A stretch of DNA of 64,000 nucleotides from Nemertoderma westbladi (Eukaryota > Animalia > Xenacoelomorpha). Within the stretch, counting starts at the first letter, position 1. Every line of letters begins with the position of its first letter. The notes beneath the pieces are model-generated. The model made no database searches. It was not told the DNA's origin and saw only the letters and a list, made by a program, of their open reading frames with translations. The position numbers and the translations under genes are program-made. This document shows positions 14,862 to 48,255 of the stretch, one piece after another. The stretch covers positions 1-64,000 of the forward strand of contig JAUCBJ010007569.1 of NCBI GenBank assembly GCA_032718475.1, given 5' to 3'.

Positions 14862-15575
14862 CTCCCCCCCATGCTATCTTCCCGGTAAGAAGATAGCATC
14901 AACCAAAAAAGTGCGCTACAATCCCGCTGGATCCCGATCTAGTATCGGGTGTGGGGTGGAATTCTTTTCTCTCGGAGCCGGCTTTCCAGGCCGCTCCCTA
15001 TGGGTATGATAACGCTACCCTGTATGCCTGGCGTCTCATGTCGGGCCGATCGCGCTCACCTCTCACGCAACTTTTGTTTCCCCAACACTTTCGCCCTATC
15101 TCTTCTCCACTCTCACCCTAACTCTCGCATACACTCGGACCTCCTCGTCCCTCACTCAGCCTCTTATTCTCCCCCCCACACACTAGAATTGCGTCCGCAC
15201 TCTCTCTGCACTTCGCTCTATTACTCCGTCCCTCAACCCCACTTTGACTACCTCATTCCTCCTGACGAATCTCCCCCCCCCCCCCTCTTGTGCCGTCGCA
15301 CTCAAGAAGTGTGAAATTGTCTGGTGTCTCGTCCATAGTGCCATAGTCAGTTTACCCCCCAGTCCCAGTAGCTAATTGAGAAAGGTTGTATGACTATAGT
15401 ACTTACTCCGAACGTATATTTGTAGATTACTAATTACTACGTACGTACATACGAATTGCACTTATATGATTATTTGCATTAATTAGATTTGTACTTAATA
15501 GTTCGTACATCTCACGCGGCGCCTTCCAGGCGTACCACGTCCAAGTCCCAGTCTCTCTCCCTCGGCTCTGGGAAC

Positions 15576-17602: not shown

Positions 17603-19479
17603 GACTTGTACCGCTTTCGGTAACCGGTTTTCTCATACTTTCTCATCGGCGGCCAGGCCTCCTTATCGCTCAGAAATTGTGGCCCATGTTGCCACAATAC
17701 TTCCTTCTTCAAGAAAGTGTGGCGTACCACGCCCCTCGACAACAAGTCCACTGGGTTCTCGTCCGTTGGGCAGTAGTGCCACCTTTCCAGTTCTGTGCTC
17801 GCCCTTATTTCGTCCACTCTATTCGCGACGAATATCGGGTATCTCGTCCTTTCGTTGTGTAGCCAACCAAGCACTACCATGGAGTCCGTCCAGTAGTGTG
17901 TCTCTACTATGTTGGGAATAGTATCCACTAGGTAGGCTGTGGCTCTAACTCCTAGTCTCGCAGCTGTCAATTCTAACTTGGGAACTGATGCTGAATCTGG
18001 CGGCATTGACTTTGCTTTGCTAAAGGCTAGTCTGGGCTTATGAGCCCCCTCTCGTTGTACTAAGTAGAGTGCCGCTCCGTACGCTTCCAACGACGCGTCG
18101 GAGAACATGTGTAGGTCCAGATTCATCATGTTCCCATCCGGGAAATACACTCGTGGCATGTTGTATGTTCCCATCTCCTCCAAGTCTCCTGTCCACTTGC
18201 TCCACTGTTTCTTGATTTCCTCTGGTACCTCTACGTCCCACTCATCCTTCAATTTGTATACTCTTTTGAGTATCTGTTTCCCCGTGACTAATAATGGGGA
18301 TGCTAGGCCTAGGGGATCGTATATCCTTGCTATATATGATACATAGCCCCTCTTCGTGTGGATGTCTGCGCCCTCCTGGCTCAGCTGATACTTCAGTTCG
18401 TCTGTCTCTCTGTTCCACACGATTCCCAGTGCCTTCTGTTGGGATTCTGTTCTCTTAATCGCCATGTCCTGCCCTTTGGCTGTTGTGGGATTATCCATGG
18501 TCGATTCTGGCCTCTTGTCCTCTATCGCCTTGATAAATTCTTCCGAACTGGATTGGAATTTGGTCAGGTTAAAGCCGGATCCTTTTAGGATGTCGCGAAC
18601 CTCGCGCCCTGTGTCCAGTATCTCCTTAACCGTATTTCCAAACTCCATTCCGTCGTCTACGTAGAAGCCGCGTCGAATCATATCAACGGCCCTACTGCTG
18701 TATCTATCTTCCTTCCCTTTCACTGTGTCTCTCACTGCCATAGTCGTCGTAAATGAAGACGACTTGGCCCCCATGTTCTGTACTACCATCTTATATGCCG
18801 GTATTATCGAGGGTTCTTCCTCGCTGTTATACCATAAGAAGCGTTGACTGTCGCTATCTTCTTCCGTTACACGGACTTGGTTGAACATGCCTTCTATGTC
18901 ACACGTGAAGGCGTGTTTCCCATTTCTAAATCTAAGTAACACCTCTATGCCCGAATTGTATATGTTTGGGCCTTCTAACAGGTAGTCGTTTAAGCATTTT
19001 CCGTCGGTCTTTGCCGATGCGTCGACTACCATCCGTAGTTTACCTTTCTTTGGGTCTAAAGCCACGTGTAGTGGCAGGTAATATGTCCTGTCCGTGTTCG
19101 GCTCGTCGACCGGTAACTCCACGGCCCATCCTTTCTCGACGTACTTCTTAATCGTTCTGTGGATGTACCCATTCTTCTCGGGGCTCCGTTTTAGTGTTTG
19201 TTTCAGCTTGCGGAGTCTCGTGATTACCATCCCTCTATTGTCGGGCAGCGGTATCTTCGGTAGTTTCCATACCATTCCTATAGTATACCGCCCCTCATTG
19301 CATGTCATCGATTCCTCCACGCTTTGTAAAGCCTGCTTGTCTTCTACCGAGGTCCCGACCCCGGTTTCTTTCAGTCCCTCGAAGTCCTGTCTGAGCAGTC
19401 TTCTAAGCTGCTCCTCTGCTCCCTCGTCACCCATTTCCTGCGTTGTTCCCGCGAACATGCATCCTGATGTCTCCGACAT
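17596..19479 (-). CDS. Element B pol: reverse transcriptase and BEL-type RNase H, ending before integrase
   Basis: YYLPLH, KLRMVVDAS, DIEGMFNQV, FYVDDG, YDPLG, LHMFSDAS..AYG, PKLELTAA, WTDS, NPVDLLSRG. Confidence 0.92.
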   Translation of the reverse strand: MSETSGCMFAGTTQEMGDEGAEEQLRRLLRQDFEGLKETGVGTSVEDKQALQSVEESMTCNEGRYTIGMVWKLPKIPLPDNRGMVITRLRKLKQTLKRSPEKNGYIHRTIKKYVEKGWAVELPVDEPNTDRTYYLPLHVALDPKKGKLRMVVDASAKTDGKCLNDYLLEGPNIYNSGIEVLLRFRNGKHAFTCDIEGMFNQVRVTEEDSDSQRFLWYNSEEEPSIIPAYKMVVQNMGAKSSSFTTTMAVRDTVKGKEDRYSSRAVDMIRRGFYVDDGMEFGNTVKEILDTGREVRDILKGSGFNLTKFQSSSEEFIKAIEDKRPESTMDNPTTAKGQDMAIKRTESQQKALGIVWNRETDELKYQLSQEGADIHTKRGYVSYIARIYDPLGLASPLLVTGKQILKRVYKLKDEWDVEVPEEIKKQWSKWTGDLEEMGTYNMPRVYFPDGNMMNLDLHMFSDASLEAYGAALYLVQREGAHKPRLAFSKAKSMPPDSASVPKLELTAARLGVRATAYLVDTIPNIVETHYWTDSMVVLGWLHNERTRYPIFVANRVDEIRASTELERWHYCPTDENPVDLLSRGVVRHTFLKKEVLWQHGPQFLSDKEAWPPMRKYEKTGYRKRYKSW

Positions 19480-19545
19480 CCCAAATGGTATCTTACTTTT
19501 GATTGGACCACTCAGTGTCCACCCGAATGGTGTTAATATCGCTGC

Positions 19546-21423
19546 TTAACTGTAATAACACTGCTTGTCTTCGCCGAAGACCGTTTGCATTCTTTCGTGG
19601 GCCGTTGGGCAGTCCATCTCTACTATGATGGATACCTTCCTAACGTCCACGTCTGGGATTGAGAAGTCAATGTCGTCCAGGAATTTATACTGCTCGACCT
19701 CGATGTTGGTTGGCCGCCTGGCATTGATATTAATTGACTCTATCACTTGGATGGGGTCGATGGTTGCCCCATAGTCGCATCCTGGTGCCACTGCTGCAAT
19801 TGCGCACCGTCCTGTTCTCATCTCCAGGATCTCATCTTTGCTAGAGATGGTTGTTACCGCCATTCTGCTTGGCCTCGTTCTCAATCCTATCTCTTCGGCC
19901 ACCCATTCCTCGACTAATGTGAAGGCAGCTCCACTATCAACCAGCATTAGTGTTGTTACTGATCGATTGCCTTCCCCAATCACTCGCACGGGTACTACTC
20001 CAAGTAACACCGTTCCTCTCTTCTTCGCCCCTACTGTGCTCGTCGCCATCGTTTGGCCTCTCCTCTGACCAAATTTTATCGGCTTCTCCTTGCACTCCCT
20101 TGCTCTATGTCCACTCATTACACATCGCGAGCAGATTTTGTTGTTCAACGCATAATCTATCTGATCTTGCCTAGGTAGCGCCTGCCAGTACCTGCAGTTC
20201 ATGGTTTGATGAAGCGCATTTGCGTGTAGCTGGCATTTGCTCTTTGGGTCGTAGCCCTCTTTATACAGCGCATTGCGTATCGCAGTTGCGTTCGTACCAA
20301 AGTCCCTACTATTCTTATTGTTTGGATTCGGCCTAGTGGACGTACTGGGGTTATGTTTGTTCGTGTTGTTATTGTTTCCCTGTCCGTTCCATGGTGTTGT
20401 CTTATCTTCGGCTAGCTGTGGACTTGCAGTCCCCTGCGTCGCTGCATATGGCAATGATTGCCTGAGTCTCGGTAATGCGTTTGATGTATTGTGCTCTGGT
20501 TTCGGTCTATGGTAATCCGTCTTCGGTCCCTTTCCCAGGCTATCTTCGCTATAGACGGGGTCAGTTATTAGCTCAGCCTCGTAGTTTAAGAAGTTTGACA
20601 TTTCTTCTAAACCCGGTTCCGCACCCTTCTTATCTCGAGTGGAGAAAGCGATCTTCCTCCACTTGTTGCGCAGCCAGTTTGGTAGTGCCTGCGCTATCGT
20701 GGTGATGTTATTGGACGCATTGAGCTCGTATGGCGCGTCTAGCGTCTTCAGCACAATTAGCGCCTTTTCGACTTTGTTAGCGAACGTCTTAATGCTAACG
20801 GGATTATCCTGTAGGCCACCCGATGTTATGCCTCTCAGCGTCTGCCTGATGATCTTGGCCGGGTGCCCGTATTCCCTATCCAGTGCCCGCCATGCTGTCG
20901 TGAAGCCGCCCTCTATTCCTTGATATTGCCTCACGATATCGTATGCTGGGCCTCCCGTGTATACTTGCAGATACTTTAGGCACTCCGCCTGCGTCAAGTT
21001 TTTTGTTAGTATTTCGTTACTATACATGCGCCGAAACTGTAGGTATTCTTCCGGCCTGCTCCCATCGAATTTGAATGGTTCCACGGGTGGTAGCTCGATC
21101 CTCGTTTTCAAAGCATCGATCAACGTGGCCATCCCCATCGCCTGTGCTTCCAATGGGTTCGACGGATGTTGTGTAGTTTCTCCTGTCTGGTGCGGTTCGT
21201 CCGTCCTATTTCTTGACTTTCTCTGACTTGGGTATGTCATCGGGGGTAGCGGCCCCCTCCATATGTCTGTATCACACGACCTGTTCTCATCCAAGGGTCT
21301 CGTTGTTCTTGCTCCTATCGGGGTATATTGTTGATATTGTGATGGGGGAATGTCACCCTGTCCCCCCCCCCCACCGGTATGTTTGGTACTGGGGTTGATG
21401 TTAATATGTTGGGACCCATACAC
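19546..21423 (-). CDS. Element B gag core, zinc knuckles and aspartic protease (frameshifted relative to RT)
   Basis: FKFDGSRPEEY..F, YLQVYTGGPA, LPNWLRNKW, CSRCVMSGHRAREC, MLVDSGAAFTLV. Confidence 0.88.
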   Translation of the reverse strand: MYGSQHININPSTKHTGGGGGQGDIPPSQYQQYTPIGARTTRPLDENRSCDTDIWRGPLPPMTYPSQRKSRNRTDEPHQTGETTQHPSNPLEAQAMGMATLIDALKTRIELPPVEPFKFDGSRPEEYLQFRRMYSNEILTKNLTQAECLKYLQVYTGGPAYDIVRQYQGIEGGFTTAWRALDREYGHPAKIIRQTLRGITSGGLQDNPVSIKTFANKVEKALIVLKTLDAPYELNASNNITTIAQALPNWLRNKWRKIAFSTRDKKGAEPGLEEMSNFLNYEAELITDPVYSEDSLGKGPKTDYHRPKPEHNTSNALPRLRQSLPYAATQGTASPQLAEDKTTPWNGQGNNNNTNKHNPSTSTRPNPNNKNSRDFGTNATAIRNALYKEGYDPKSKCQLHANALHQTMNCRYWQALPRQDQIDYALNNKICSRCVMSGHRARECKEKPIKFGQRRGQTMATSTVGAKKRGTVLLGVVPVRVIGEGNRSVTTLMLVDSGAAFTLVEEWVAEEIGLRTRPSRMAVTTISSKDEILEMRTGRCAIAAVAPGCDYGATIDPIQVIESININARRPTNIEVEQYKFLDDIDFSIPDVDVRKVSIIVEMDCPTAHERMQTVFGEDKQCYYS

Positions 21424-22189
21424 CTATCCGCAATAATTCCCCCCTCCCCTGGGTATATGTTATGTCCCTGCATGCTGTAGTCATACTGCTGTACTGGTAC
21501 CGGTATAGGCCTATCAGCTTCTGGCCTACCCGCCGGTATATATTCCGCGACTTCCGGGTTTAATCCCGTTGTCCACGCTACATTGCCTCTCTCAGTATGG
21601 CCTATGGTATGTGCAGTAAGGCCTACGGTATGTCCTACAGTCTGCATGTGTCGCTCGAGATCGAAGTTTATTCTTCTCGAATAATCTTCCCCGCGGCTAC
21701 CGTATTCTCGATTGATAGGTGTATTCTGTCGGAAAGTTTCTCTTCGACCCCCCCCCTCTACTGTTCTCGTCTTCGTACCGGTACATCGCGTACCCCTCCA
21801 TCGGCGCGTAGTGCGCCTCGCCGCGTCGCATCTCTCCGGGGCGACGGCAATCTCCCGGAGTCCGACCCCACTGACTCTCCGTTCTCATCTCAACTACCGA
21901 CGGCTCGCTATCCGTCCTCGCTCTTCTATCGTTCGTGGCGATACCTCTACTGCTGTCTTCTCTTCTTCTCCTTTCAGTGGAGTATTCCCGCTCGTGAGAT
22001 CTCTCCTCGACCTCCCGGTTAAACCCCACTGTTTTTCTTCCCTCTTCTGATCGGGCTCGACGCTTCGTCCGCCCTCTTACGACGTCAACCTGTCTCTCTC
22101 TGCTTGGTCGCACGCCGCTGGGGATACTCACAATCCCCCTATTACTTTCCGTCGCCGGGTGTTGCGGTTTACCTATTTCGGCCCGCGCA

Positions 22190-23929
22190 TTATCCGCTGA
22201 CGGCTGTGGGACACTCTCTGCCCCCCCTTTCGCCGCTAACTCGCTGTTGTGGGGCCCCTGTAGCCCCCCCCCACTCGCCACATCTAATTTCGCCATCTCT
22301 CACCCCGCTACTATATCCCTCTCTAGTCGACACATCAACCCTACCGCGGTCGGGTCTATTCACCCCCGCCTCTCCCTCTGCTATTACGTGGCCTACCAGG
22401 CCCTCTGCTCCCTGCCTACCAACTATGTGGCCTACCAGGCCCTCGCTGGGTCTATTCAACCCAGCCACTCCCTGCCTACCAACTACGTGGCCTACCAGGC
22501 CCTCGCTGGGTCTATTCAACCCAGCCACTCCCTGCCTATCAACTGCGTGGCCTACCAGGCCCTCGCTGGGTCTACCTAATCCAGCTACTTCTTGCCTACC
22601 AACTGTGTGGCCTACCAGGCCCTCGCTGGGTCTACCTAACCCAGCTACTTCCGGCCCACCAACTGTATGACCTACCAGGCCCCCGTCTGTCTGGCTATAC
22701 ACGCCCGACGTGTTTACGCCAACAGCACCCACACTGGAAACGGAATTAATCTGCTCGCTCGGAACAAAATCATTTGAATTACTTTGCGCGACTACACTAT
22801 CTGAATTATTTTGTAAATTCGGGCTCGGATTATTATTTAAATTATTTGGATTATTTTGTGTAATTGCGTTACTTAAGTTATTTTGTATGTTCGAATTTGG
22901 GTTATTATTTTGATTATTTTGATTATTTTGTGTAGCTACATTAATATTAGAATTATTTTCTACATTAATATTAGGATTATTCTGATTTAAATTTAAATTA
23001 CTACCACTAGGCAAAGTATTTCCTGCAATAAAGGTTTGATTAGAATTATCCCATACGGTACTATTAATATTAACCACGTCTACTGTACCATTATCACCCC
23101 CCCCCCCCCCCCCCGTACTGTTACACCAGTTTTGGGTCTGTCGTGCGGTCCCTGTAAGTGGGGTGTTAATAAGTGTATCCACGGCCCCTGGCTCCCCTAA
23201 AATACTCGAGCCAGTCCCGCTCTCAGACGCCCCCGCCCGCACCAGTTGCAGCTCGCGCATGCGTCTAATCCTATGCTCCGCAAGCTCACTTTGGCGTCTC
23301 TTTAATTCTTTTCGCTCACACTCCTCCTTTGCCATTCTCTCCCTACACTCCCGTTCGCTCTGTTCGGCCAACTCTGCCACTCTCCTAACTTCCTCCCGTC
23401 GTCTTGCCCTACGCTCCTTGCGTTCCTTTTCCTCTCTCGCCTCATACTCCTTACGTTCCGCCTCCTGTCTCGCCTCACGCTCCCTGCGTTCCGCCACACG
23501 CTCCTCTTGTTCCTTTCTCTCTATTTCCTCATACTCCCTAAGGCTTCTCAAAGCCCTTTCAGCCCTCTCTCCGGTTTCTCTAATCAATACCGTTTCCCTC
23601 TCTAGCCGCATTCTCCCTTCCTCTAGCTGTTTATCCATTTCCCTCTGACCTTGCTCTATCAGGTCGAGACGGTACGCGGCACCAATCTCTCTCACCAGTC
23701 TTTCTTTTGCGGAGGATGTAGCAGACTTATCGGTTGTGACGGATTCCCTCCGCCTTCCCGTCCTACTGACCTTCCCCCGCTTCCCGGAACTTCCTCCGAC
23801 CGACGAGGCTGAATCCTCGGGGTTAACCTCGGATTCGCCCCCTTCAGGTCCCCTCCAACCCACTAATTTTACTCCCCGGGCATCGACCAAGTATGGCCCT
23901 ATGTACACTGATGCTATGCTAGGTTCCAT
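22190..23929 (-). CDS. Element B gag N-terminal extension (E/R coiled coil, N/Q-rich tract, 20-aa repeats), separated from the gag core by stops or frameshifts
   Basis: 579-aa ORF upstream of and on the same strand as the gag core; low-complexity composition. Confidence 0.65.
   Translation of the reverse strand: MEPSIASVYIGPYLVDARGVKLVGWRGPEGGESEVNPEDSASSVGGSSGKRGKVSRTGRRRESVTTDKSATSSAKERLVREIGAAYRLDLIEQGQREMDKQLEEGRMRLERETVLIRETGERAERALRSLREYEEIERKEQEERVAERREREARQEAERKEYEAREEKERKERRARRREEVRRVAELAEQSERECRERMAKEECERKELKRRQSELAEHRIRRMRELQLVRAGASESGTGSSILGEPGAVDTLINTPLTGTARQTQNWCNSTGGGGGGDNGTVDVVNINSTVWDNSNQTFIAGNTLPSGSNLNLNQNNPNINVENNSNINVATQNNQNNQNNNPNSNIQNNLSNAITQNNPNNLNNNPSPNLQNNSDSVVAQSNSNDFVPSEQINSVSSVGAVGVNTSGVYSQTDGGLVGHTVGGPEVAGLGRPSEGLVGHTVGRQEVAGLGRPSEGLVGHAVDRQGVAGLNRPSEGLVGHVVGRQGVAGLNRPSEGLVGHIVGRQGAEGLVGHVIAEGEAGVNRPDRGRVDVSTREGYSSGVRDGEIRCGEWGGATGAPQQRVSGERGGRECPTAVSG
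22385..22685 (-). repeat. 60-bp coding minisatellite (about 4.5 copies)
   Basis: GGCCTACCAGGCCCTCGCTGGGTCTA recurs every 60 nt; encodes VAGLNRPSEGLVGHVVGRQG-like units. Confidence 0.9.
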
Positions 23930-24689
23930 ACTCCCCCATTCCCATAGTTCAAACAGTTCGCTGGCAACCCCTTTTGCTCTCTCCTAGGCTAGTTCTCTCT
24001 GCCCGAAGCGCATTAGATAATATAAATGTCTGTCCGACTTACCTAGTCCTTATTTTAGTTTTACCTCGTCTATCGTTTTCCCCTTTCTGGCCTCCTCTAG
24101 TAGTCTCCGGGTCGCGTTGTAGGCCCGTCGAAGTCGATCGGAGACCCCGACGTCCTCGTCGCCGACCTCTCGTCCGTCTCTCCGGGTTCGACGTCGTACC
24201 GGCGGCCCCACCATCGCCGTTCCGGTGGGCCGTCCGTCGCCCTCGGCCTGTGCCTGGCCGGCGACATCGGTATCGACACCTCCGTCGTCTCTCCGGGTCC
24301 GGCGTCGTACCGTCGGCCCCACCGTCGCCGTCTCGGTGGGCCGTTTGTCGCTCTCGGCCTGTGGCTGGCCCGCGACATCGGCACGTCGACCCTCGTTCCG
24401 TGTCGACTCGTCTCTTTCTCCCTCGAGCTCGTTCTCTCTATCCTCCGACTTGACTCCCCCTCCTCTCTACTCAGCTTCTGACTCCAGACGGTCCCCCTCA
24501 TCTTGAACTTCCGGGTCGCCCGTTACCGATGGCTCCGGCGTCGTGGGCCTATACCGCCTGGTCGCGGCCTCGCGGATCGTTTGTTCTTCGTCCGGGGTCC
24601 GCGTCGGTGTTGTCTCGCCCGACTGACTCATCTCGCTTGGTGATTGGTGGAGTTTAGCTAGCTAGGGCAGCAGTTGGTTCTAGTTACTG

Positions 24690-24723
24690 AGTTTAGCTAA
24701 GGCAGCAGCACTGATTTAGTTAC
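24690..24723 (-). promoter_or_regulatory. Non-tRNA primer-site of element B (GTAACTAAATCAG...), complementary to its own LTR segment 24878-24911
   Basis: No TGG after the LTR; 25 of 34 Watson-Crick pairs, including perfect 9-bp and 10-bp stems, with the LTR segment. Confidence 0.7.
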
Positions 24724-25247
24724 TGTGACGGGATCCAGGAGGGATCCCGGTTTATCCGGTGTTAGTTCACGCGTCCCCGCCGTGTGTGAAGAGTAAATGG
24801 GTTCGTGTCGTTCGTTGTATATAATGATCGGTATAAAGATATAGATATAGATTGTTGTACACGGAAGGCGGGATACGGTAACTAAAGTCCCGGTCCTTCC
24901 CTAGCTAAACTATCTAACCTAAACTAGCACCAATATTGCACTGAGATAACTGAACTGATATGATTACTGCCAAGTGGCTATATTGCACGGTTGGCCTTGT
25001 TACTCTACCTAATCGATGCCTTTCCCCCCTCTGATTGGTTGATACCCTTGTTGGCGCCCTTTGGAGTGTTCCCGTTCACTCCACCTGTTCTCTCTGGGTT
25101 AGGGGTTTGGCCCCTGACCCTCATTGTGTGTTTCCTTCCCATTCTTATTGGGGTGGCACGAGTTGGTTAATTACCCAATCTCGTGGCTCCCAATATTGCT
25201 TATCGGCTTAACTTTATGGGGTGTTAGCGGGATTGAATAAGCTAACA
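24724..25247 (-). repeat. 5' LTR of element B
   Basis: 524-bp direct repeat; CCAATCAGAG and TCAGT initiator-like motifs on the minus strand. Confidence 0.97.
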
Positions 25248-25252
25248 AGCAA

Positions 25253-25360
25253 GCTTATTATACAAGCTCTGTTCTAGTGGGACAGTAGAGACTTGTAAAG
25301 TTACTGTTCGCGCTTTTAGACCTTTAACAGTTTAACCTGTTAATTTAAGTGTCTTATATT
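25253..25360 (-). mobile_element. Remnant of element A: end of the 5' LTR and start of the leader
   Basis: Minus strand reads CAGGTTAAACTGTTAAAGGTCTAAAAGCGCGAACA|GTAAC, nearly identical to the LTR end of element C. Confidence 0.85.
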
Positions 25361-26559
25361 GTTTGTTAGCCCGTACAAAATCAAACAACAGTAGAAGACA
25401 CGTTCGTGGGGCCTACGCGAGCACGAGGCTCAGTTATGAGATACAAATTAAAATTGAGCAATTCTAACACAAAATCTTTATTTAAGAAATTAACCAAACC
25501 TCAAATAAATCATAAGAGGGGAAAGTTGTTCGCTTTCAACCCCCCCCCCCCCCCTTAATTTGCACCCCAACCCAAAGACACACATAGGATTGTTCACAGG
25601 CAGGTATTAACAGAAAATTGGTGTTTTAAAAGTAATATATTTTAGGCGTGGAGGCGACCCAATTTATAAGAAATATTATAACTTACCTTATGACGTTTTA
25701 GTATTGGTACTGAAATATTAATTTACCATTTCGTTGTCACAACTAAATTATTTAGCTATATTTATTCTAAAGAATCTACATTAAATACTCAGCCAATCAT
25801 TTTGCGAGATAAACCATAAGCAAGCTGTCTTATTACTCTAGGGCCTAACACTATTGCATGTGCTATATAATTACACCTAGCTGGAATAGTGGTGAGGTGG
25901 AACTGGTCGGACTGATTCCTAGCCCGGCAAACACACCGGACGTGTTCTAGCACATATCTGATGTTTCAGCTAAATCAGTGATTGTACTTTGAGACATTTT
26001 GCCCTCTAGCGGCAGACTAGAGAACTGCAGACAGATGAGCCTCCTTTGAATGACACAGTTAATGGTCTAGTACAAATATGCCAAGTTTCAGCTAGAACGG
26101 GTTTAAAGCAAAGAAAATGTGAGGCTATTTAATATCTAGACATGTAGCCCTCTTGCGAGAGACTGAGGATTTGATGGTGCCTGGAAGTCCCTAAAAAACA
26201 AAAGTTATGGTCTTGATGCCTACTAATTTTAGACTCGAAAGCTTTTAATCCGACGAAGATATAAGTAAGTCAAAATCGTAGCCACGATGATGACATACAG
26301 TACAATTATTGAATGAACTATTTGCCATAATTGACCTACCCCCCTAAGAGATAGCGCCAGTTCGCAAAGGCTCCGCCAACTTCGTGGCTCGGACCCTATA
26401 CCCCATGCTATAAAATGTATTCCATCGATATACAATTATATATTAATCCGCTAGGTGGTGTCAAATTATTATTCTGCAATTTTGTACTTGTACACAGTAC
26501 AGCAGTACCGTACCCGTAGGCCTACGTCATTACTTCGGAGTCTCTAGCCGATCCCCAAT

Positions 26560-26910
26560 TAAATGTCTTTTCAATTTCGTAGAAGATAGACTTTATGATT
26601 CTCTACAAGCAACCAAAATTTCAGCTCTGGAAAATGAGGCGTTCCCGATAAATTTTACATTTTCTAAAAACCACATAATCTGTCGTAGCTGACGTCAGAC
26701 TGCATGATTTTTTACCAAACTTTCCAAATTTTCTAGACTTTCCCTCTACTACTTACCTACTAAGTTTGGTTCAACTTCAAATCAGCGATGCCGAGAAATT
26801 CGCGTTCAAAGATTTACCAAACAGACAGACGGACAGACAGACGGACATGCCCCATTTGCCCTATATGAACCGTATGCCAAGGCTCGCCGACTACGTGTCT
26901 CGCCCCACAG
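26560..26910 (+). repeat. Possible Helentron/HINE-type non-autonomous element
   Basis: (GACA/GACG)n microsatellite at 26821-26847 followed by a short GC-rich end; similar tracts near 2370-2400 and 54970. Boundaries uncertain. Confidence 0.35.
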
Positions 26911-28618
26911 TCATTGCACGGCGTATGACCCACCGTATATGGGAGACTGAATTTTATCAGCATGAAAACTAGATGACATGTCTAGTGTCATCTTCTCCCA
27001 AATAGCTAGCTGAATAGCTAGTTGACTAGCTAGTCAGCTAGTTGTCAGACTAGCTGACAACTTAATTTGTATTGTTCTATTGATATCTACTATATAATCT
27101 CCAAAAACTATGTTCACTTTCAGGGTAGTATTGGCAGTTCCTTTCAGATGCTGCGCTTTAAATACTAGACACAGTTACGACTTACAATAATTACAACAGA
27201 TTATTTAATCGAACCACTGTTATTTACATTCTTTAGGAATGTAGTATTATATACTCGCACTCACTCCACTGACAATAATACGGAAACACGCTGATTTGCT
27301 GACTATTACCAATTTTGTTCATGTATAAGGAGAATTTCAGCTCACTTATGTTGGTGTTATGAAATATTATAAATATCACACATATTACTTGTACTTCCCT
27401 TCTGCTTACCTCTCAATAATAAAGAAAGTTAGTTGAGATTATCAATTATATATATACTGTATGTATTCTCCAAATATAAACATCCAGCAATAATATTACT
27501 GTACCAAACAACAATGAATAACAGCACAAAAGCAGTGAATAATGGCGGTGGCAGCAGTTAATTAGCAGTCAGATGTTTGACATTAAGACTGAAGTAAAAT
27601 TAGGAAGATGAGTTATGTGCAGATGAGTGTTTAGGCAGGTAACTTTACAGTGCTCGATAATTCATGCCACTGTTGTTACTGGGCTGAATATCATCAGACT
27701 GAAGGATTTGGGGATTCAACACACTGAAGTACTGTAATGCAAAAAGGGATGAATCATGGAATGTCATAGAATTCCATGGAATTACGGTAAAACTCCAATC
27801 AGGAGCCAGTAATCCATGCCAGCTGTCCGTAACCAATAGATTCAGTTTCCATTGTAATGAAACTCTACGGCTGGAGAAAGTGAAAATTGTGTTGATTGGT
27901 CGTTTGGATATCACAGGGGCTATGGAGACAAAGAAACCAGGTTTCAGTTTTTTGAGTAATGTCGTCAACAGAGTCATATACCAAAACTAAACGCAACATG
28001 GCATAAGTTTATATGTTCTCAACTACCTTGAGATATTGCTGCGTTTAGAGTAATTCGCGCATTGCACAGAAGACATATTTTTGCCGCAAAAGCTTTTACA
28101 GGTACAGAAAGCATCCGAGGCCTTACGATGGCTGTACCCTAGTATACAGTTGTAAAACAATAGCGCAGATTTAGTTTGGCACTGTACTGCCATGGATGAG
28201 GCCGAACGTTGAATTCACTGCCGAGAGCCGAGTATAAATGGGCCTTAACCCAACCCTGCATGCATTACGGCATACGGTACCTTGCTTACCGTTACAGGTT
28301 GTACAGTGACTGCCAGGCAAGTGGCGCGGCGCAGCAGGTGTGAACAGGATGACAGATGAACCGTCAACGTAACTAGTACTGCAGTTTAGCATTAGCAATG
28401 CAGTAGGCAATACACTCTGACTGTACTGTCCTTATTTGAGCGCCATCCAGTGGTGTTTTGCGAAATAGAGCGAAATACCTCATCAGAAGATGGAGATATC
28501 AATGATGTCATGTTGCTGGCGTGGGAAATAATTATTTGTGTCGAATGCGTCCTTATAAAGCAATATCAAGCGTCACAAGCGAGTTAATGTAATTTAACGA
28601 TGCCTTTAGTGGAGTAAA

Positions 28619-32264: not shown

Positions 32265-32967
32265 CTCTATCCTTGATAAAATGCTGACAATCCTAAGAGT
32301 TTATGGAAATAAACCAGAAGTAATCATTAAATTGTTACATTGCAAAATAGATGCTCACAGGTACTCTTGCTACTGTACGTAGATGGTGAAACCAAGTTAT
32401 TCTCAATCCTGGTATGTGTACAGCAAGGCGACAAATTTGATTCATAACTTTTCATAATTGTAATGGATTACGCAATTAGGACAGCTAAAACTGATTAAGA
32501 TCTTTGATTCACACTTGAAGATGTTGAAACAGCAGATATCACACACACGGACTTTGCAGATGACATTGCCATAATTCAGTAATTTCTAACACACTAACAG
32601 ATGAAAATCTTCCACTAAACAAATTGGAAATGGGCTGCTAAACATATAAATGTTACCAATCGATGCATGACTTTTTAAATAATGGAAGTCTCCATCAATA
32701 ATAATCAACTAAAGAACGATTACCAGTACCTTGGGTCATTTGATAGAGAGTACAAGAAAATACCTTGAAGTTTGCAAAACAAAGTCATGGGTGGTGGCTC
32801 TATCGAAAGGAACTATCTGGAAATCAGACCATTCCAAAGTTCTTCCGAACATTCGAAGTACTTTTATGTGTGGATGAGGCCTGGTGATGGTGACTGACGA
32901 AATCACATCCGACGAATTGAGATGACTTACACAAGACTACTAAGGGCATTCATATCCTATCAGCATT
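32265..32967 (+). pseudogene. Old degenerate copy of the RTE family at 1-1155, interrupted by element C (short remainder at about 45374-45430)
   Basis: Collinear nucleotide similarity (ATCCTAAGAGTTTATGGAA, GATGGTGAAAC, GACTTTGCAGATGACATTGCC, CCAGTACCTTGG, ACACAAGACTACTAAGGGCA). Confidence 0.85.
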
Positions 32968-34213
32968 TGTAAAAGCTTTTGTGGGATAACTGATACGTTT
33001 GCCTTTGCTGGCCAGTTCCCCCCCAGGCGCTGGAATACTCTAAAAGGGTTCTCTGACTGTATATATATTCCCTTCGCCCGCAAGGTACCTTTACAGGTGT
33101 TTTAACGGACATAAAAGTAATTCTGCTATATACGTGTTTTAGTGGACATGGTAAGGCAAAAAACCTGTAATGCACCAACTACCTTTCACAGCTTAGCCGT
33201 GATGATTCATATTACGACATCTAACAGCTGGTTGCTGACATGGAAACAGCCATTGGATGTGTGGTTCTTTGTTTGGCTTGAGCCAATCAGAGCGATTTTT
33301 CCTGTCGACGTGTAGCTTTTAGTCGATCAGAAGGAGAGTGTTCAGTCTTACTGTTTTTTCTTGTTACTTTGTTGTTATTGCTGTCTAAGCCAGAAACACC
33401 GGCATTTTAGTAAGAACTATAGTAAACTGCTTGAATTATCGAAAGTATAAACTGTTACCGAACTACTCATTAACTCATCTCACCTTGATACTTTACTTAC
33501 TTAATTTAATTGCATTAATCATATTGTTTGTACTGTTATTTTACCGTCAGTTATTAATTGTACCTATTTGTTGATGGAAATATTGCTATTTGGATAATAC
33601 GGATAAATCACCCAATTCCCAATTTTCTTGATAACACTACAGGTTAGAGAGACCGGCTATACATAACAATTGCGATTTATATTAATGTGGTGTGTATTGA
33701 ATCCAATGTTATTTAGCAGACCCTACGTGAGTCAATTAATGCTCTCTTTATGTGTGATCAAATGTACTGACTGTCGGCAGAATAGTGTGTATGATTGTGA
33801 TTGGTAACAAAGTATTTCCTAAAGAATACGCTTTATACTTCAATCATAAGCAGTATCGTTGCGTTTAGTATAAGTCTTAGTTCTGTTTAAATAGATAAAG
33901 CGCCACGTCCTAAAGGAACTGTTAATATTTCCCGAAAGCCAATAATATCTGTCAGAGATTAATTATTAACGATCTATCGAATAATACATTAGGTATACAC
34001 TGCAACCTTACACTGTAATAATACAATTCAAGCATCCGAATTCAGTCTCCCGGGTGTAGATCCATCGGGTGAATGATCGCGCATGGGCTGACTTCGGCTA
34101 ATGTTTTGCGTATTAGCATAAATTATTGTCGTATGCTAAAGTGGTTTTAATTAACTAAAAGACATATAAATTTTGGCAGGTTAAACTGCTAAAGGTCTTC
34201 AAAAGCGCGAACA
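32968..34213 (+). repeat. 5' LTR of element C
   Basis: Direct repeat of 44123-45368; two substitutions noticed by eye. Confidence 0.97.
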
Positions 34214-34226
34214 GTAACAGTTTATA
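34214..34226 (+). promoter_or_regulatory. Non-tRNA primer-site of element C (GTAACAGTTTATA)
   Basis: Exact reverse complement of TATAAACTGTTAC at 33446-33458 in its own LTR; no TGG after the LTR. Confidence 0.75.
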
Positions 34227-35170: not shown

Positions 35171-36480
35171 AGAGTTTATGCGATTATTCGCAACATTCAT
35201 GTCCCCAAGTTTATTCCTACAGTAATTGTGTTTGTTACACATACCGTTATAGTTAAACTAACCCCGGTACTACATCAGGGCTGCTTGGCGTAGGTAAAGA
35301 CTGACGACTTTGTGCTTCGGTCACTCCAGCAGATGCCGTGGTTCTTTTAACTGTTCAAGTATATTTAACTACTGATTATTTGTTATACCGGTACTTGTAC
35401 CTAATTTAGGGTTTAGTGTACAGTGCTATCCGAAGTAATTAGTGTAGGCAGTATATTTGTGTTGTAAAGTGGTTGATAGGCACATTCGTTAGCTCTATTA
35501 GCTTCTGGGTAGGAACAATCCGTGATACATAACGTAGTACCTATAGCGATACGGTTATAGGTCGTCAGGCGGTGGTATTTTCCTATCTGGACAGTACAAT
35601 ATATTTACTACTACTTATTATTTAAATACCGTAGTACCCTGTTCTTTGTAATAACCAGAAATCTAACCCTTTGTTGGACTGGTTGTAGACTTCCTGTAAA
35701 ATTACCCTAAAAAATTCGTACGTCATATTTTGTTGTGTTTTAATTAGAGAATTAATCTCACCCGTATCGTAAGTAATTCGTAGTATTAAGTAACTTAGGT
35801 AAATTAGAATTATCAGTTTTAGTGTCAAATAAATAGCACTTCACTGAGAGGCGTTCAGCTTCTGTGTAGTGACCCCCCAGAAATAATAACATTTATTTCA
35901 AATATTGACAAAAAACCCATATAACGGGTATATAAATATTATAAATCAAATCAAACGATTTAGAAATAGTAGGCCTGTCATACAAAAACTAGGTCTCACT
36001 ATCAGTTGGACTACTGCTTAAATAACAGTAACAAAGTAAGTTAAAGTAACCAAGTAGCCCTAAAATATTCAGAGATTCAAATATTCTAAAATAATTGACA
36101 TACCGGTACTCACTATAGGCTTATTATATTTATCTCTATAAATTTGAGCGGAAATCATACCGGTACTCTGTAATTAATTCTAGTTCATAATTATACTTAC
36201 ATGCTGTAAGTGTAAGCTGTATACCGGTATTCATTATAGGCCTACTATATATATATATATATATTTGTGCTAAAATTATATACCGGTACTCTGTGACAAA
36301 TCTAGTCTGTAATAATACTTATATATTATAAGCATACCGGTATTCTAATATATTGTATATATATCACGTTCCACTGAGTAACGGTACCGGTAATAAATAG
36401 CTAGGCTTGCGGTCATACTGAATTACTAGACTTGCTTTAACTGAAACTATAGTAGTAGACATTCAACTGTATAACTAAAC

Positions 36481-39400
36481 ATGTCTGACACTCAGCAAAA
36501 CCTGTCGGACAGTCTGATCGAGACCACTATCTGTGATTCAGATAGGAGTGTGGAGCGAATAAGAGAGAAGTTCGGCTCACCTCCTACTGTAAAAAAGGTC
36601 ATCCCTCCAGTAGTATCAGACCCTAGGCTAGTCCACCATAGGTCCATCATAGGCACTCGGGCACAGGTAAAACGGGACCAAGAGGCAGCTGTCCTATCGC
36701 AGCAACATCTTGGTCAAGAACCTACTTCCCAGAGACCAGATAGCTCCAGCAGTTCGGATACTGTAGAGTTGACTCCCGAACATGGAGTGCAGATGGCTGA
36801 TACAGTCTACTCGGACCCCCTTCTTACTCTTCCTGCTGCAGTGCTAACTACTATACTCATTGCGGTGGAGGAACATCAAGCCGACTGGGCGAAGAATAAG
36901 CAAGCGACCCAAGATAATTACGCGGGATACGCCAGGGAAGAATTGATATCTATTGTTGAATCACAATGGAACTTTCCCGGACTCGGACTCCCGTTGGACC
37001 TGTCCGAGGCTACTTGGGAAGATATACACAGGATGGGAGTGGCTCAAGATACAATGGATCCAGCTGTTTGGAAGAGGTCGGCAGCAGGATATGTGCAGGG
37101 ATTCTTCGGATCCTTGGAGCGATTGGAAGAACAACTGTTTCGACAACCTCACGGACCTCAAGAGCAGGAAGAACTGCTATATCAAATACGCGAAAGAACC
37201 CTACGCATTCGACTAATCCTCTCAGCCTTTGAGGAAACTTCCAAAAGAAGACAGGACACGTCGCTGCAGGTTGCTGTCAAAACTTGGCTACATCGAGTAG
37301 ATCTCAAAGTACAGGAAACAGCCCAGTGGAAATCCCAGCTGGCTGAGAGATCAACCTATGAGGAACCAACTGATGTCACCGAACCAACTGATGTCACCCT
37401 TGCTCAAGAGGAAAGCGAAGAGGCCGCCGAGAAACCGCGAACTAGAGACGCTATCGACATTTATTTGTCCGACTATCAGCGATTCCTAGGAGACGAAGAG
37501 TTGAGGAGACGGCTACATGGACTTTCCCCTAATAGTGAAGGAACCAAGCTTATATTGGACGCGATCGATACCGAAATGTTAGCTGCAAACCAAGCTGAAT
37601 GTGATGAAAAACTCCGTCTCACTAGAGTCCGAGAAGAACAAATAAAGAAAAGAAGGATAGAGGAACAAAAGGCGGCGGCTATGGCGGCGGCTACGGCAGA
37701 AGCAGAAGCCGAAAGAAAGGCAGTGGCGGCAGAAGCAGCAGCAGAAAGAAAGGCAGTGGCGGCAGAAGCAGCAGCAGAAAGAAAGACAGCAGCGGCAGAA
37801 GTAGAAGCAGAAAGAAAGGTGGCAAAGGCAGTGAGAGAAGCAGAAAGGAGAGCATCTGAGCAGACTACCCAACTGGAGTTGGAGAATCTGCAAGAGACAC
37901 AAGACAGTATAACTAAACAGTTTACTGCTAATCAAATGCAGATGATGAGAAAATCTACCCCCAAACGCCAGGGGTACACATCATCGGAGGAAGGCGATAC
38001 TACCGACCCTGAAGGCGGAGGAGATAGATCTCATCTAAGTAGGCGTAGAAAAACATATTACCGTCGTAAATTGCCTGATTTGCCCCCAGCTGTTAAAAGA
38101 CAGCTAACTAGCACAGATTTAGGTAGTGCAGAACCTATAGAACAATTTATCCAGGTCAAAAGACTCCCTACTATAGTCGATGAACCTGAAATAATTAGGC
38201 CTGTAATTCCCAAAGTCACTTCTATGCTAGAGACCCCTACACTTCCAGAGCTTAACTCTAAATTCCCTTTACATAGCACTACACTGCCTGTACCCGGTGG
38301 AACAGTCCATGCAAATACACCTGTACAGATAGCAGAGAGAGAAATCAATAATTTGTCTCCCGTCGTCCCGCGTCAGCCCGCTACTATGTTGGCGACTCCC
38401 GCTTCGGCGGTTGAGTGGGTGGAAGAGGGACGGCGGGGGATGAATCTCCTGCTAGGACAGATGCAGGAGACTGTCCACCAACTTAAGGGAACAGTGAGGG
38501 AAGGTAGAGCAGAGTTGCGAGAAGTGCAGCAAAGTATCGCGCTAGAACGCGACAAATTAGTCAATATACAAAAAGGCATACCAATGCCCCCTGTAACATT
38601 GTGTCAACCCGTTAGGTCTGAAGTATTACATGCGCAAGGTGTTGAGCCTACACGTATCTATACTGCTAGTGAAGTTGAAACTCCTATAGCAAACCCTATT
38701 AAGGGTGATGATAGACCTGTTATCAATGATATTCCCTATAGACCTGATAATGATCCGAGAAATTTGTATACCGATAATTCGATATTAAATAACACGATGG
38801 CCCAAGAAAGCTTTACGCGTCAGATGGCTAGAACAGAAGCCCGCCAAGCGGTCAAAGTGGGAGAGATCGTCAAATTCAATGGGGATGAGATGAAATGGTT
38901 ACCTTTCAACGAATATTACAAAGATAGCATACAGAACTCTGTACTATCTAACGGAGAGAAACTTAGATTCCTCATCAAGTGCTTGGAAGGACCTCCCAAG
39001 TTAATGGCGTTAAAGTTTATTGGACATCCAGATGGATTAAGACAAGTTTGGGATACATTAAACATCAGGTATGGTAACAAGGATAACATAGCTAAGTATT
39101 TGTATGCAAAATTAGTAGCCCCTCGACACTTCCTTAGTAGTGGGATTATAGAGTTTTCCGATGAAATTCAAGAGATCTGTAGACAACTGGACTGGTTAGG
39201 TAAGTCGCACGAATACCAGAGTTCCATGGTTATTGGAGCCGTAGTCTCTACTTTACCAAAGGGTGGAGTATGTACACGCTGGGACAAGAAAGTGTTGTAC
39301 ATGAATGAACAACAACGACGAAGTCCTACCATGGCTGATCTCATGTCTTTCTTAGATAGTGAAGTAAAATTACAACTCATAAGGCAGGCCAGAGAGAAAA

Positions 39401-41133
39401 CATCGGAAAATAAGGTAAGTGAGAAACCCGATTCTAGGAGAAGGATAATACCAGTGTGTTATACTGACGACGGCGAAAGCCAAGCTTCTCAAGAAGAGGA
39501 CAGCGGGAAAGACACAGCAAAATCTTACTATGACAACAAGACCTACAAAGACGTAAGTAAATACAAGTCTCGAACCAGTGACAGGAGAGAACAGGTAACA
39601 ACAACTCCTCCTACGTCTCCTAAGAGAATTCACGGAAGAAAGCCCGAAGAAAGAACGAGAGTGCATAACGTTACCCAAGGTAAGGTGAGTAACATCAAAC
39701 CAAAATGTGCGCTGTGCGACGGGCCTCACCGTTTGAGTGCGTGTGCTGAATTTCTAAAGAAATCCCCTGTAGACAGACGTACAGTCCTGTGGAATAAGCG
39801 GTTATGCTATAATTGCCTCAGATCAGGACACCAACGGCGAACCTGTTACTCCGACGCAAAGTGTGCAAAGTGTGGCGCGAAACATCACATTTTGTTACAC
39901 AGTGAGTTCGAACGAGACAACCCGAGTCAGGTAAGTGAGCCCGAACTACATGTCCAATTCAGTGATGTGAACGACACTGACCAAGGTTCTGAGTGGGAAG
40001 GATTCTATACAGACGAATTCTCCGATGCCAACGAATCCTGTTATCTAATAAATACCACAGTGTATCGAGCACTTACGGATGAAAAGGACACTGACGAGTT
40101 TACTCCAACTCCTTTTGACAAACAACCATCTTGGAAAGTTCCAACTTCCAACATAGGAATAAGAGAATTTCCTGTAGTGCAAGTTCGAGTTCATGGTCCC
40201 AACAAGAGTTACATAGTGAACGCCCTACTTGACTCCGGCAGCACAGGAACATTCATCGATCAAGAACTAGCCGAAGATATCTTTGCTGGACAACCCAAGT
40301 TCCGGACTAAATTGAATATGTCAGGAATTATGCAGGTTTGGAAATCTACCCTAACGGCAGATTACTATGTAGGTGTGTTGTCCACCCCCCAGGATAAGTT
40401 AGGAACACAAGGTATAAGGTCAGTAAAAATGGTGGCTATAAAGAACTTTGCTACTACTCAAGCAGAACCTTATAACTGGGACGAGGACGAGTGCATCCAA
40501 CATCTTGAGATACCTCGATTCCAAACCGATTATCCTGGAGTGCAAATACTTATCGGCCAAAACGCGCATGAGGCGCTCGAGCCATTAGAGAAACGGCCTG
40601 CTCAACCACAGCCACTACAAACCTATGCGGTAAGAACTAGAGTAGGTTGGTACTTCACTGGCCCTTCCCGTAGAACTCTCAAAGAGAGATTACCTCAACA
40701 ACAGGTATACCAAGTAAAGGGGGAAGTGGAGAGCAGTGATGTGGACGACCCAACTGAGGGAACACCATACTCCTCAGATAATGACGATATTAACTCCAAT
40801 GTAGATCAATGGAGACATTGCCTTGGGACGATTAATCCAGCCGACATCGCTTCCAGAGGAGCAACTCCTCAAGAACTGATAGATACTCCAGGCTGGTTAG
40901 GTGGATCCGACTTCTTAAGTAAAGAAGAAGAAGAATGGCCTCCTCATCTTACCACGGCGGAGAGTAGACAGGCCAAGGGAGCGGAGAAACTAACACAACC
41001 ACTCAATCGCCCAGCTAGTCGTTTATGTTTACTGGAAAGAGACCGAAAACTGTCCGGAAACTATGGAAGGCAAGATACTCTTCCTACGACCACTTCCCTA
41101 ATCCGACAAATATCTAGGGACTCCATAACGTAA
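36481..41133 (+). CDS. Element C Gag-protease polyprotein (1550 aa) with in-frame deletions of RT/RNase H and integrase
   Basis: KFNGDEMKWLPF, three Cys-His knuckles (CALCDGPHRLSAC, CYNCLRSGHQRRTC, CAKCGAKHHILLH), LLDSGSTGTFI, then directly QWRHCLGTINPADIASRG and RPASRLCLLE. Confidence 0.92.
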   Translation: MSDTQQNLSDSLIETTICDSDRSVERIREKFGSPPTVKKVIPPVVSDPRLVHHRSIIGTRAQVKRDQEAAVLSQQHLGQEPTSQRPDSSSSSDTVELTPEHGVQMADTVYSDPLLTLPAAVLTTILIAVEEHQADWAKNKQATQDNYAGYAREELISIVESQWNFPGLGLPLDLSEATWEDIHRMGVAQDTMDPAVWKRSAAGYVQGFFGSLERLEEQLFRQPHGPQEQEELLYQIRERTLRIRLILSAFEETSKRRQDTSLQVAVKTWLHRVDLKVQETAQWKSQLAERSTYEEPTDVTEPTDVTLAQEESEEAAEKPRTRDAIDIYLSDYQRFLGDEELRRRLHGLSPNSEGTKLILDAIDTEMLAANQAECDEKLRLTRVREEQIKKRRIEEQKAAAMAAATAEAEAERKAVAAEAAAERKAVAAEAAAERKTAAAEVEAERKVAKAVREAERRASEQTTQLELENLQETQDSITKQFTANQMQMMRKSTPKRQGYTSSEEGDTTDPEGGGDRSHLSRRRKTYYRRKLPDLPPAVKRQLTSTDLGSAEPIEQFIQVKRLPTIVDEPEIIRPVIPKVTSMLETPTLPELNSKFPLHSTTLPVPGGTVHANTPVQIAEREINNLSPVVPRQPATMLATPASAVEWVEEGRRGMNLLLGQMQETVHQLKGTVREGRAELREVQQSIALERDKLVNIQKGIPMPPVTLCQPVRSEVLHAQGVEPTRIYTASEVETPIANPIKGDDRPVINDIPYRPDNDPRNLYTDNSILNNTMAQESFTRQMARTEARQAVKVGEIVKFNGDEMKWLPFNEYYKDSIQNSVLSNGEKLRFLIKCLEGPPKLMALKFIGHPDGLRQVWDTLNIRYGNKDNIAKYLYAKLVAPRHFLSSGIIEFSDEIQEICRQLDWLGKSHEYQSSMVIGAVVSTLPKGGVCTRWDKKVLYMNEQQRRSPTMADLMSFLDSEVKLQLIRQAREKTSENKVSEKPDSRRRIIPVCYTDDGESQASQEEDSGKDTAKSYYDNKTYKDVSKYKSRTSDRREQVTTTPPTSPKRIHGRKPEERTRVHNVTQGKVSNIKPKCALCDGPHRLSACAEFLKKSPVDRRTVLWNKRLCYNCLRSGHQRRTCYSDAKCAKCGAKHHILLHSEFERDNPSQVSEPELHVQFSDVNDTDQGSEWEGFYTDEFSDANESCYLINTTVYRALTDEKDTDEFTPTPFDKQPSWKVPTSNIGIREFPVVQVRVHGPNKSYIVNALLDSGSTGTFIDQELAEDIFAGQPKFRTKLNMSGIMQVWKSTLTADYYVGVLSTPQDKLGTQGIRSVKMVAIKNFATTQAEPYNWDEDECIQHLEIPRFQTDYPGVQILIGQNAHEALEPLEKRPAQPQPLQTYAVRTRVGWYFTGPSRRTLKERLPQQQVYQVKGEVESSDVDDPTEGTPYSSDNDDINSNVDQWRHCLGTINPADIASRGATPQELIDTPGWLGGSDFLSKEEEEWPPHLTTAESRQAKGAEKLTQPLNRPASRLCLLERDRKLSGNYGRQDTLPTTTSLIRQISRDSIT

Positions 41134-44044: not shown

Positions 44045-44122
44045 CTGTTTAGAGTATTTTTGTATTTTAGAAACTGTGATTTTGTATATTTTATAGACTT
44101 AAATCCCATTTTCTGGGAGCGG

Positions 44123-45368
44123 TGTAAAAGCTTTTGTGGGATAACTGATACGTTTGCCTTTGCTGGCCAGTTCCCCCCCAGGCGCTGGAATACTCTAAAA
44201 GGGTTCTCTGACTGTATATATATTCCCTTCGCCCGCAAGGTACCTTTACAGGTGTTTTAACGGACATAAAAGTAATTCTGCTATATACGTGTTTTAGTGG
44301 ACATGGTAAGGCAAAAAACCTGTAATGCACCAACTACCTTTCACAGCTTAGCCGTGATGATTCATATTACGACATCTAACAGCTGGTTGCTGACATGGAA
44401 ACAGCCATTGGATGTGTGGTTCTTTGTTTGGCTTGAGCCAATCAGAGCGATTTTTCCTGTCGACGTGTAGCTTTTAGTCGATCAGATGGAGAGTGTTCAG
44501 TCTTACTGTTTTTTCTTGTTACTTTGTTGTTATTGCTGTCTAAGCCAGAAACACCGGCATTTTAGTAAGAACTATAGTAAACTGCTTGAATTATCGAAAG
44601 TATAAACTGTTACCGAACTACTCATTAACTCATCTCACCTTGATACTTTACTTACTTAATTTAATTGCATTAATCATATTGTTTGTACTGTTATTTTACC
44701 GTCAGTTATTAATTGTACCTATTTGTTGATGGAAATATTGCTATTTGGATAATACGGATAAATCACCCAATTCCCAATTTTCTTGATAACACTACAGGTT
44801 AGAGAGACCGGCTATACATAACAATTGCGATTTATATTAATGTGGTGTGTATTGAATCCAATGTTATTTAGCAGACCCTACGTGAGTCAATTAATGCTCT
44901 CTTTATGTGTGATCAAATGTACTGACTGTCGGCAGAATAGTGTGTATGATTGTGATTGGTAACAAAGTATTTCCTAAAGAATACGCTTTATACTTCAATC
45001 ATAAGCAGTATCGTTGCGTTTAGTATAAGTCTTAGTTCTGTTTAAATAGATAAAGCGCCACGTCCTAAAGGAACTGTTAATATTTCCCGAAAGCCAATAA
45101 TATCTGTCAGAGATTAATTATTAACGATCTATCGAATAATACATTAGGTATACACTGCAACCTTACACTGTAATAATACAATTCAAGCATCCGAATTCAG
45201 TCTCCCGGGTGTAGATCCATCGGGTGAATGATTGCGCATGGGCTGACTTCGGCTAATGTTTTGCGTATTAGCATAAATTATTGTCGTATGCTAAAGTGGT
45301 TTTAATTAACTAAAAGACATATAAATTTTGGCAGGTTAAACTGCTAAAGGTCTTCAAAAGCGCGAACA
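44123..45368 (+). repeat. 3' LTR of element C
   Basis: 1246-bp direct repeat followed by TSD GCATT. Confidence 0.97.
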
Positions 45369-48108: not shown

Positions 48109-48255
48109 TTAAGCAGTATCAATTTGATTCGCTTAATTCATTCACGTATATACCACCTTTTATATATCATTGTATATTTTGTATATTTTTGTACTTGTTT
48201 ATTTTCGTTAATTTTCATATATTTCAAATTTCGGCCTATACCTTATTAATTCACA

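Follow-up and report, generated by a model that had tools for sequence, protein, structure and literature searches.

Candidate fold-back self-priming from an internal LTR segment in a BEL/Pao retrotransposon of Nemertoderma westbladi

The retrotransposon Tf1 primes itself: the first 11 bases of its RNA engage in pairing, and the RNase H cut falls between bases 11 and 12, as given in the accessible part of PMC7175516. Self-priming has also been described for Tj1 (PMC4600332) and Tf2 (PMC5341516) and predicted for Tcn1 and TAR (PMC6317226), again according to the accessible portions of these papers. For the TAR lineage of Ty1/copia (Houba, Osr-1), the prediction was made from an LTR complement of at least 10 nt lying 0-5 nt after the LTR. 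These are plant copia elements, and the accessible text of PMC6317226 mentions neither an internal nor a splice-built primer. Belpaoviridae are listed by the ICTV with an 18-nt site for host tRNA-Arg or tRNA-Gly and with host-tRNA priming, and their replication is described as poorly understood (PMC8742986). The accessible text of four BEL/Pao papers contained no passage on primer sites or priming (PMC554778, where the only primers are PCR primers, PMC6238403, PMC2774666, and PMC3118150), and that of PMC8220671 treats the primer site in generic terms only. Self-priming is tied to Tf1-like elements alone in the accessible text of PMC3601003, PMC6934838, PMC5443660, and PMC5445492. Among the mostly openly available articles searched, we found none on BEL/Pao self-priming.

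We analyzed a 64,000-nt stretch of Nemertoderma westbladi DNA (GCA_032718475.1, contig JAUCBJ010007569.1, positions 1-64,000, forward strand), referred to below as the window. Three elements, A, B, and C, were compared with the described systems. As in Belpaoviridae, we found a Gag with DUF1759 and CCHC knuckles, the PR-RT-RH order (in B), TG...CA LTRs, a polypurine tract, and a 5-bp duplication. Unlike the ICTV description (PMC8742986), neither A, B, C nor any of 12 related metagenome loci has a tRNA-Arg or tRNA-Gly site; C lacks the reverse transcriptase (RT) and the integrase, and B yielded no integrase match. As in Tf1, Tf2, and Tj1, the Tf1/sushi group, and the Tcn1 chromoviruses, as far as the accessible descriptions go, the primer site is complementary to a stretch of the 5' LTR of the same element and not to a tRNA, and the duplexes are comparable in length. 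In contrast to these Tf1-type Ty3/gypsy elements, the BEL-specific domains DUF1759 and Peptidase_A17 are present (Pfam), the predicted position of the segment is 60-115 nt into the RNA instead of at its first base, the loop reaches up to 755 nt, and an intron interrupts the segment in 7 of the 12 relatives. The complements of A and C lie within the length and distance used for TAR, and the core of B is 9 nt. Element C is thus a BEL/Pao derivative that departs from the tRNA-site feature; it would work like Tf1, yet it is not a member of the Tf1/sushi group. We propose that C is primed by 5' fold-back from an internal LTR segment, with a predicted start and a predicted cut, and assign this reading a probability of about 0.7.

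Element C and its primer site

Element C, a young LTR retrotransposon of the BEL/Pao group, encodes neither RT nor integrase. It consists of the following features:

32963..32967 (left) and 45369-45373 (right), plus strand: GCATT target-site duplication (5 bp) flanking the element
32968..34213, plus strand: 5' LTR, 1246 bp, TGT...ACA, two differences from the 3' LTR
33446..33458, plus strand: candidate self-primer segment, whose priming 3' end would arise by a predicted cut after 33458
34214..34226, plus strand: non-tRNA primer-binding site, from the first base after the LTR onward
36475..41133, plus strand: Gag (DUF1759, three CCHC knuckles) and protease, then an RNase H end piece of about 50 aa
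42737..44044, plus strand: extra 3' reading frame, broken, with a CCHC knuckle
44115..44122, plus strand: polypurine tract
44123..45368, plus strand: 3' LTR, in which the primer segment recurs at 44601-44613

The 1552-aa frame at 36475-41133 matched PF03564 (DUF1759) with an E value of 8.8e-12 in Pfam; its three CCHC knuckles and the DSG motif of the protease were read from the translation, and its last ~50 aa match the end of the BEL RNase H region. This BEL-type Gag and protease, together with the LTR termini, the polypurine tract, and the short target duplication, are the BEL/Pao hallmarks of C. Four BEL pol proteins with integrase domains gave no integrase match anywhere in the window (tblastn). 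We read the missing integrase after the RNase H as a loss in defective copies; since C has neither RT nor integrase, these enzymes would be needed in trans. Contigs of DNA runs from three studies showed that the C family is high-copy and variable in the host.

The GCATT duplication around C fixes the end of its 5' LTR at 34213. As an earlier note on this DNA had stated, the sequence that follows does not start with TGG; its first 30 nt contain no TGG at all. The complement reported by that note within the element's own LTR was recovered: 34214-34226 (13 bases) is exactly the reverse complement of 33446-33458, and also of the copy in the 3' LTR. The 3' base of the segment stands opposite the first base after the LTR, and the pairing stops precisely at the LTR border, where C33459 faces A34213. 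A match of at least 13 nt at offset 0 was obtained in 3 of 20,000 dinucleotide shuffles of the LTR, and at offsets 0-4 in 11 of 20,000. The shuffles give about 1.5e-4, higher than the 2e-5 (at uniform base usage) of the earlier note but still far from chance.

The following features of the LTR and leader of C bear on the position of the segment in the RNA:

33283..33292, plus strand: CCAAT-box-like motif, occurring in the LTR of B too, with a putative promoter function
33341..33348, plus strand: initiator-like TCAGT motif TTCAGTCT, predicted start near 33344; the same 8-mer occurs in A at 27696-27703
33343..33430, plus strand: hairpin predicted within the first ~90 nt of the putative RNA; it stops just short of the primer segment
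34293..34311, plus strand: second copy of 'LTR end plus primer site', 85 nt downstream, with one mismatch at 34310

Both promoter motifs named earlier, CCAAT (at 33283) and the initiator-like one, are thus present in the LTR of C, and the copy of the latter in A sits upstream of the primer segment of A. At 34310, most of the contig depth of the C family carries the base that pairs perfectly. Of the 71 recorded variants, 40 were inspected: 33446-33458 and 34214-34225 contained none of these, 34226 carried a deletion of 1 nt, and indels were found at 33465-33472. The primer site is repeated in the leaders of both C (85-nt spacing, 34208-34341) and B (36-nt unit, 24651-24723, minus strand), and every leader copy in the two elements is preceded by CA, resembling an LTR end. 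Copies with additional units are suggested by contigs of run X4, in which the sequence returns from 34307-34321 to 34257.

Several further arrangements were examined in C. The best spliced match was 11 nt at offset 4; because it is shorter than the unspliced 13 nt and falls inside the control range, a splice-built or longer primer was rejected for C. A GT-AG joint occurred in none of the contigs (three DNA runs and X5, taken as RNA by guess), and these contigs are uninformative on splicing and on the start. An inverted copy of the 5' region of C in its own leader was not significant (90 of 1000 shuffles), an extended pairing like that of B was absent (9 of 36 pairs), and neither C nor B carries AATAAA or ATTAAA in its LTRs, C having variant hexamers only.

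The window also contains other repeats. A non-LTR retrotransposon at 46396-51111 has two open frames, one of 570 aa and the other, for endonuclease and RT, of 953 aa. Two 25-nt tandem arrays (4374-5273 and 5671-6182) are mutually inverted and about 85% alike. An inverted repeat pair (28624-28794 and 62684-62846) is 88% identical, and its end resembles by eye the head of a tRNA-derived SINE; ARAGORN calls no tRNA there and finds no tRNA gene in the window.

Mirrored changes in element A and own-LTR pairing in element B

A BLAST search with the LTR and leader of C first detected element A as an LTR end at 25289-25339 on the minus strand. Its features are as follows:

25305..28100, minus strand: 5' LTR of A, of the C family but older, interrupted by ~1.7 kb of other DNA
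27639..27649, minus strand: primer segment of A, 11 nt, at the position orthologous to the segment of C
25294..25304, minus strand: primer site of A, exact complement of its own segment
9749..10798, minus strand: broken RT remnants of A, indicating that RT was once in the lineage of C

Element A has a leader 67-71% similar to that of C, together with gag and RT remnants. Its LTR begins at 28100 with the same 14 bases as the LTR of C and has the same end motif. As no 3' LTR of A was found, its LTR end at 25305 was set by homology with C. The other DNA in this LTR lies at 25358-27068, and A seems to be cut off downstream of the RT. The RT remnants are 27-33% identical to BEL pol proteins; in a comparison without named clade references, the RT piece was nearer to elements of aquatic animals.

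What this window contributes is an orthologous pair, A and C, in which both an indel and a substitution are mirrored. Compared with C, the primer site of A lacks 2 nt and has one T>C change. Its segment lacks the same 2 nt and carries the mirrored A>G change, and all 11 of 11 pairs are retained. The covariation looked for after the earlier note is thus present in both arms of A. An 11-nt match anywhere in the 2796-nt interrupted LTR of A, ignoring position, appeared in 36 of 20,000 mononucleotide shuffles. The duplexes of C and A with their own segments scored -13.9 and -11.5 kcal/mol, respectively, as compared with -3.7 and -4.6 kcal/mol for the crossed combinations. Own matches in A, B, and C were 11, 9, and 13 nt long, and crossed matches among the three only 5-6 nt. 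No TGG stands at the primer site of A. Where C reads TATAAA, A reads TGTAAA; together with the mirrored indel and substitution, this counts against both a TATA box and a tRNA as explanations of the segment.

Element B is a distant BEL/Pao element, nested in the leader of A 56 nt past the LTR and flanked by a 5-bp duplication; the region of A spans 9749-28100 on the minus strand. Its features are listed below:

14338..25247, minus strand: element B, nested in the leader of A; 524-bp LTRs, 5' LTR 24724-25247
24878..24886, minus strand: primer segment of B, 9 nt
24651..24723, minus strand: primer site of B (24715-24723) and downstream leader, ~73 nt complementary to LTR 24878-24956

The gag of B is only 21% identical to that of C. 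Pfam gave a PF05380 hit, the gene order is PR-RT-RH, the closest proteins to its pol are BEL polyproteins bearing PF05380, and no integrase was detected by Pfam in the downstream frames. Extra 3' frames with CCHC knuckles stand before the polypurine tract in both elements, open in B (15579-17093, minus strand) and broken in C (42737-44044).

The primer site of B also lacks TGG. Its first five bases are common to A, B, and C; positions 6-9 all differ from those of C and are still paired, and the site pairs with the LTR of B only. The 9-nt match to its own LTR was reached in 58 of 20,000 shuffles, and the in-register extension of the pairing (21 of 36 Watson-Crick pairs) in 1 of 20,000. The best local alignment between leader and LTR of B runs from LTR base 292, the A of its initiator-like TCAGT, to base 370.

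Self-pairing in related metagenome loci

The pol frame of B retrieved 62 BEL proteins, and a nine-sequence alignment gave 80 metagenome loci with 30-37% identity to the pol of B. Seventeen of these were read by eye, and the 12 distinct loci with a readable LTR end, judged by direct-repeat comparison, were used. L018 was left out as a duplicate of L022, and L016, L037, and L078 because of unclear ends; the 3' LTR of L032 reaches the contig end, and the end of L060 was set by eye. Nine further loci, in which only the LTR start could be fixed, were not counted; seven of them have a candidate end matching over at least 10 nt, although these ends were picked among candidates and two of the seven repeat counted families. 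No relatives were found in the viral contigs collection.

All 12 loci pair with their own LTR over 10-15 nt beginning 0-4 nt past the LTR, and none has a TGG. A match of at least 9 nt to the own LTR was present in 14 of 14 elements (the 12 loci, B, and C) against 13 of 182 mismatched pairs. Pairing starts 0-4 nt from the LTR border and ends there in these 14 elements and in A. The paired site begins with GT in 11 of the 14 and in A, and with AT in the other three, and the segment ends in A-pyrimidine in all 15 readable cases.

The match is contiguous in five of the loci and needs the removal of a GT-AG intron of 76-186 nt in the other seven. Although the criterion demanded only GTR and YAG, six donors read GTAAG (GTAAGT in four, GTAAGC, and GTAAGA) and one GTACG (GTACGT), and the acceptors are pyrimidine-rich. 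An intron through the segment would place it inside a transcript. AATAAA or ATTAAA occurs 12-98 nt downstream of the segment in 11 of the 12 loci and never upstream. A TATA box transcript starts about 30 nt downstream of the box; two of the loci have such a box, and their predicted cuts follow it by 134 and 147 nt, hence by about 105-117 nt a start at this spacing. The distance from the TCAGT motif is 115 nt in C, 62 nt in A, and 79 nt in B. The internal position of the primer, put forward in the earlier note for C, agrees with the two relatives that have clear TATA boxes, and a segment about 60-115 nt past the predicted start is the best reading of these distances.

Other properties of B and C are rarely found among the relatives. 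Extended pairing at the level of 1 in 500 shuffles was seen in only one of the 12 loci, and a second primer-site unit in at most one. L032 is the sole relative with TGG at its apparent LTR end and has no self-match; it is nested among self-pairing families in the tree, and it is possibly tRNA-primed, or its LTR end may be misplaced. In the RT tree (98 sequences, midpoint root, no named clade references), the self-pairing loci spread through the aquatic-animal group, apart from the arthropod elements, and B forms a long branch outside both groups. L024/L025 form a head-to-tail BEL array with a 6138-nt period and 100% identity, either a tandem insertion or an assembly artefact. In L004 (1-326 and 6694-7103), one LTR keeps the intron acceptor within the primer segment and the other is contiguous; this difference would be as expected after intron loss, the donor side lying beyond the contig.

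A proposed mechanism and its alternatives

According to our reading of C, transcription would start near 33344, and the segment, ~115 nt farther on, would anneal to the 13 nt that follow the LTR, closing a 755-nt loop. The RNA would be cut at the end of the duplex, after 33458; as in Tf1, the nuclease would probably be RNase H, here from an RT provided in trans. The RT would then synthesize DNA from the LTR border as far as the cut before switching to the copy in the 3' LTR. The strong-stop DNA predicted for a cut at 33458 comprises 33459-34213; because it needs a 3' overlap, the poly(A) site would have to lie beyond 44613. Whatever lies upstream of the cut would come from the copy in the 3' LTR; provided that this copy remains unspliced, such inheritance could account for the persistence of introns in the relatives. 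In many of these the segment is probably assembled by host splicing, while in C it would be ready-made.

The folding predictions are permissive for C, not proof. With 33341-34240 folded, the predicted duplex probability was about 0.99. It dropped to 0.005 when the fold was extended to 34350, as the site then pairs locally, and forcing the duplex cost 2.1 kcal/mol. For B, the duplex probability was 0.004 and the forcing cost 3.8 kcal/mol.

Priming by the element's own RNA in one form or another is very probable. Within it, the primer may not be the 5' copy: the copy at 44601-44613 in the 3' LTR could prime after trimming near the RNA 3' end, or a short LTR transcript or co-packaged RNA could act in trans. 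This is the strongest of the rivals, although we hold it to be unlikely. The segment is indeed present in both LTRs, C has a long loop (755 nt), and folding in cis has to compete with a local hairpin. The intron-bearing relatives need one LTR copy unspliced and the other spliced, and the sequence assigns neither. The poly(A) signals downstream of the segment in nearly all of the loci, however, mean that the natural 3' end is not at the segment. The extended complement of B, which reaches back to the initiator-like motif, also fits a 5' fragment.

Slightly less probable is that the duplex is a structural element, such as a U5-leader or packaging switch, and that something else primes. The near-equal alternative folds predicted for C and B and the ~73-nt span of the pairing in B are compatible with such a role, and the accessible literature reports that Tf1 requires a U5-IR-like stem besides its primer. 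A packaging stem has no reason, though, to keep the register at the LTR border found in 14 elements and A, or the invariable A-pyrimidine end, and there is no alternative TGG primer site that another primer would use.

We consider it very improbable that the primer is a host tRNA half or fragment to which the LTR segment is only similar. The final 7 nt of the segment of C appear to resemble an Asn anticodon loop, and the five primer-site bases shared by A, B, and C could also point to a common host primer; half-tRNA priming is known in Ty1/copia lineages, according to the accessible part of PMC6317226. Against this, the 2-nt indel between A and C falls after base 5 and is mirrored in their own LTRs, and the 14 diverse sites each match their own LTR only, seven of them across an intron. 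Rfam gave no match at E <= 1 in 32900-36500, which is weak evidence for so short a site.

The least probable alternative, a TATA box upstream of the real start with a match due to chance or a one-off inverted duplication, draws on the TATAAA that begins the segment of C, and this caveat of the earlier note has weakened, since the orthologous TGTAAA of A is mirrored in its primer site, an intron splits the segment in seven relatives, the segments of B and the 12 loci are unrelated to it, and so few shuffles (3 of 20,000) did as well.

A broader picture built on 5' fold-back priming can be offered only tentatively. A widespread branch of BEL/Pao elements in aquatic animals may have given up tRNA priming for a third route. 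The primer would be a long capped 5' fragment of 60-115 nt, in many families assembled first by the host spliceosome; within an RNA-RNA duplex, cleavage would occur at a constant A-pyrimidine end. The fragment would stay attached and be copied during plus-strand synthesis, thereby rewriting the primer site in each round. If true, this rewriting would explain the perfect covariation, mirrored indel included, the ~73-nt inverted copy of the 5' end in B, and the repeated primer-site units that B and C carry in their leaders.

If C and its relatives are self-primed, tRNA-free priming would have arisen in a third LTR superfamily, and in animals. For an internal primer, the RNA would have to be cut precisely at a long distance from the cap, and in many families it would also have to be spliced by the host. 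Such elements would, as we infer from the accessible text of PMC7472051, escape silencing by tRNA fragments, and self-priming would explain why tRNA-based primer-site searches fail on them. The A/C pair represents a natural compensatory mutant at one orthologous site. Because the C family is high-copy in the host, the start site and the RNA-DNA junction should be readable directly from host RNA.
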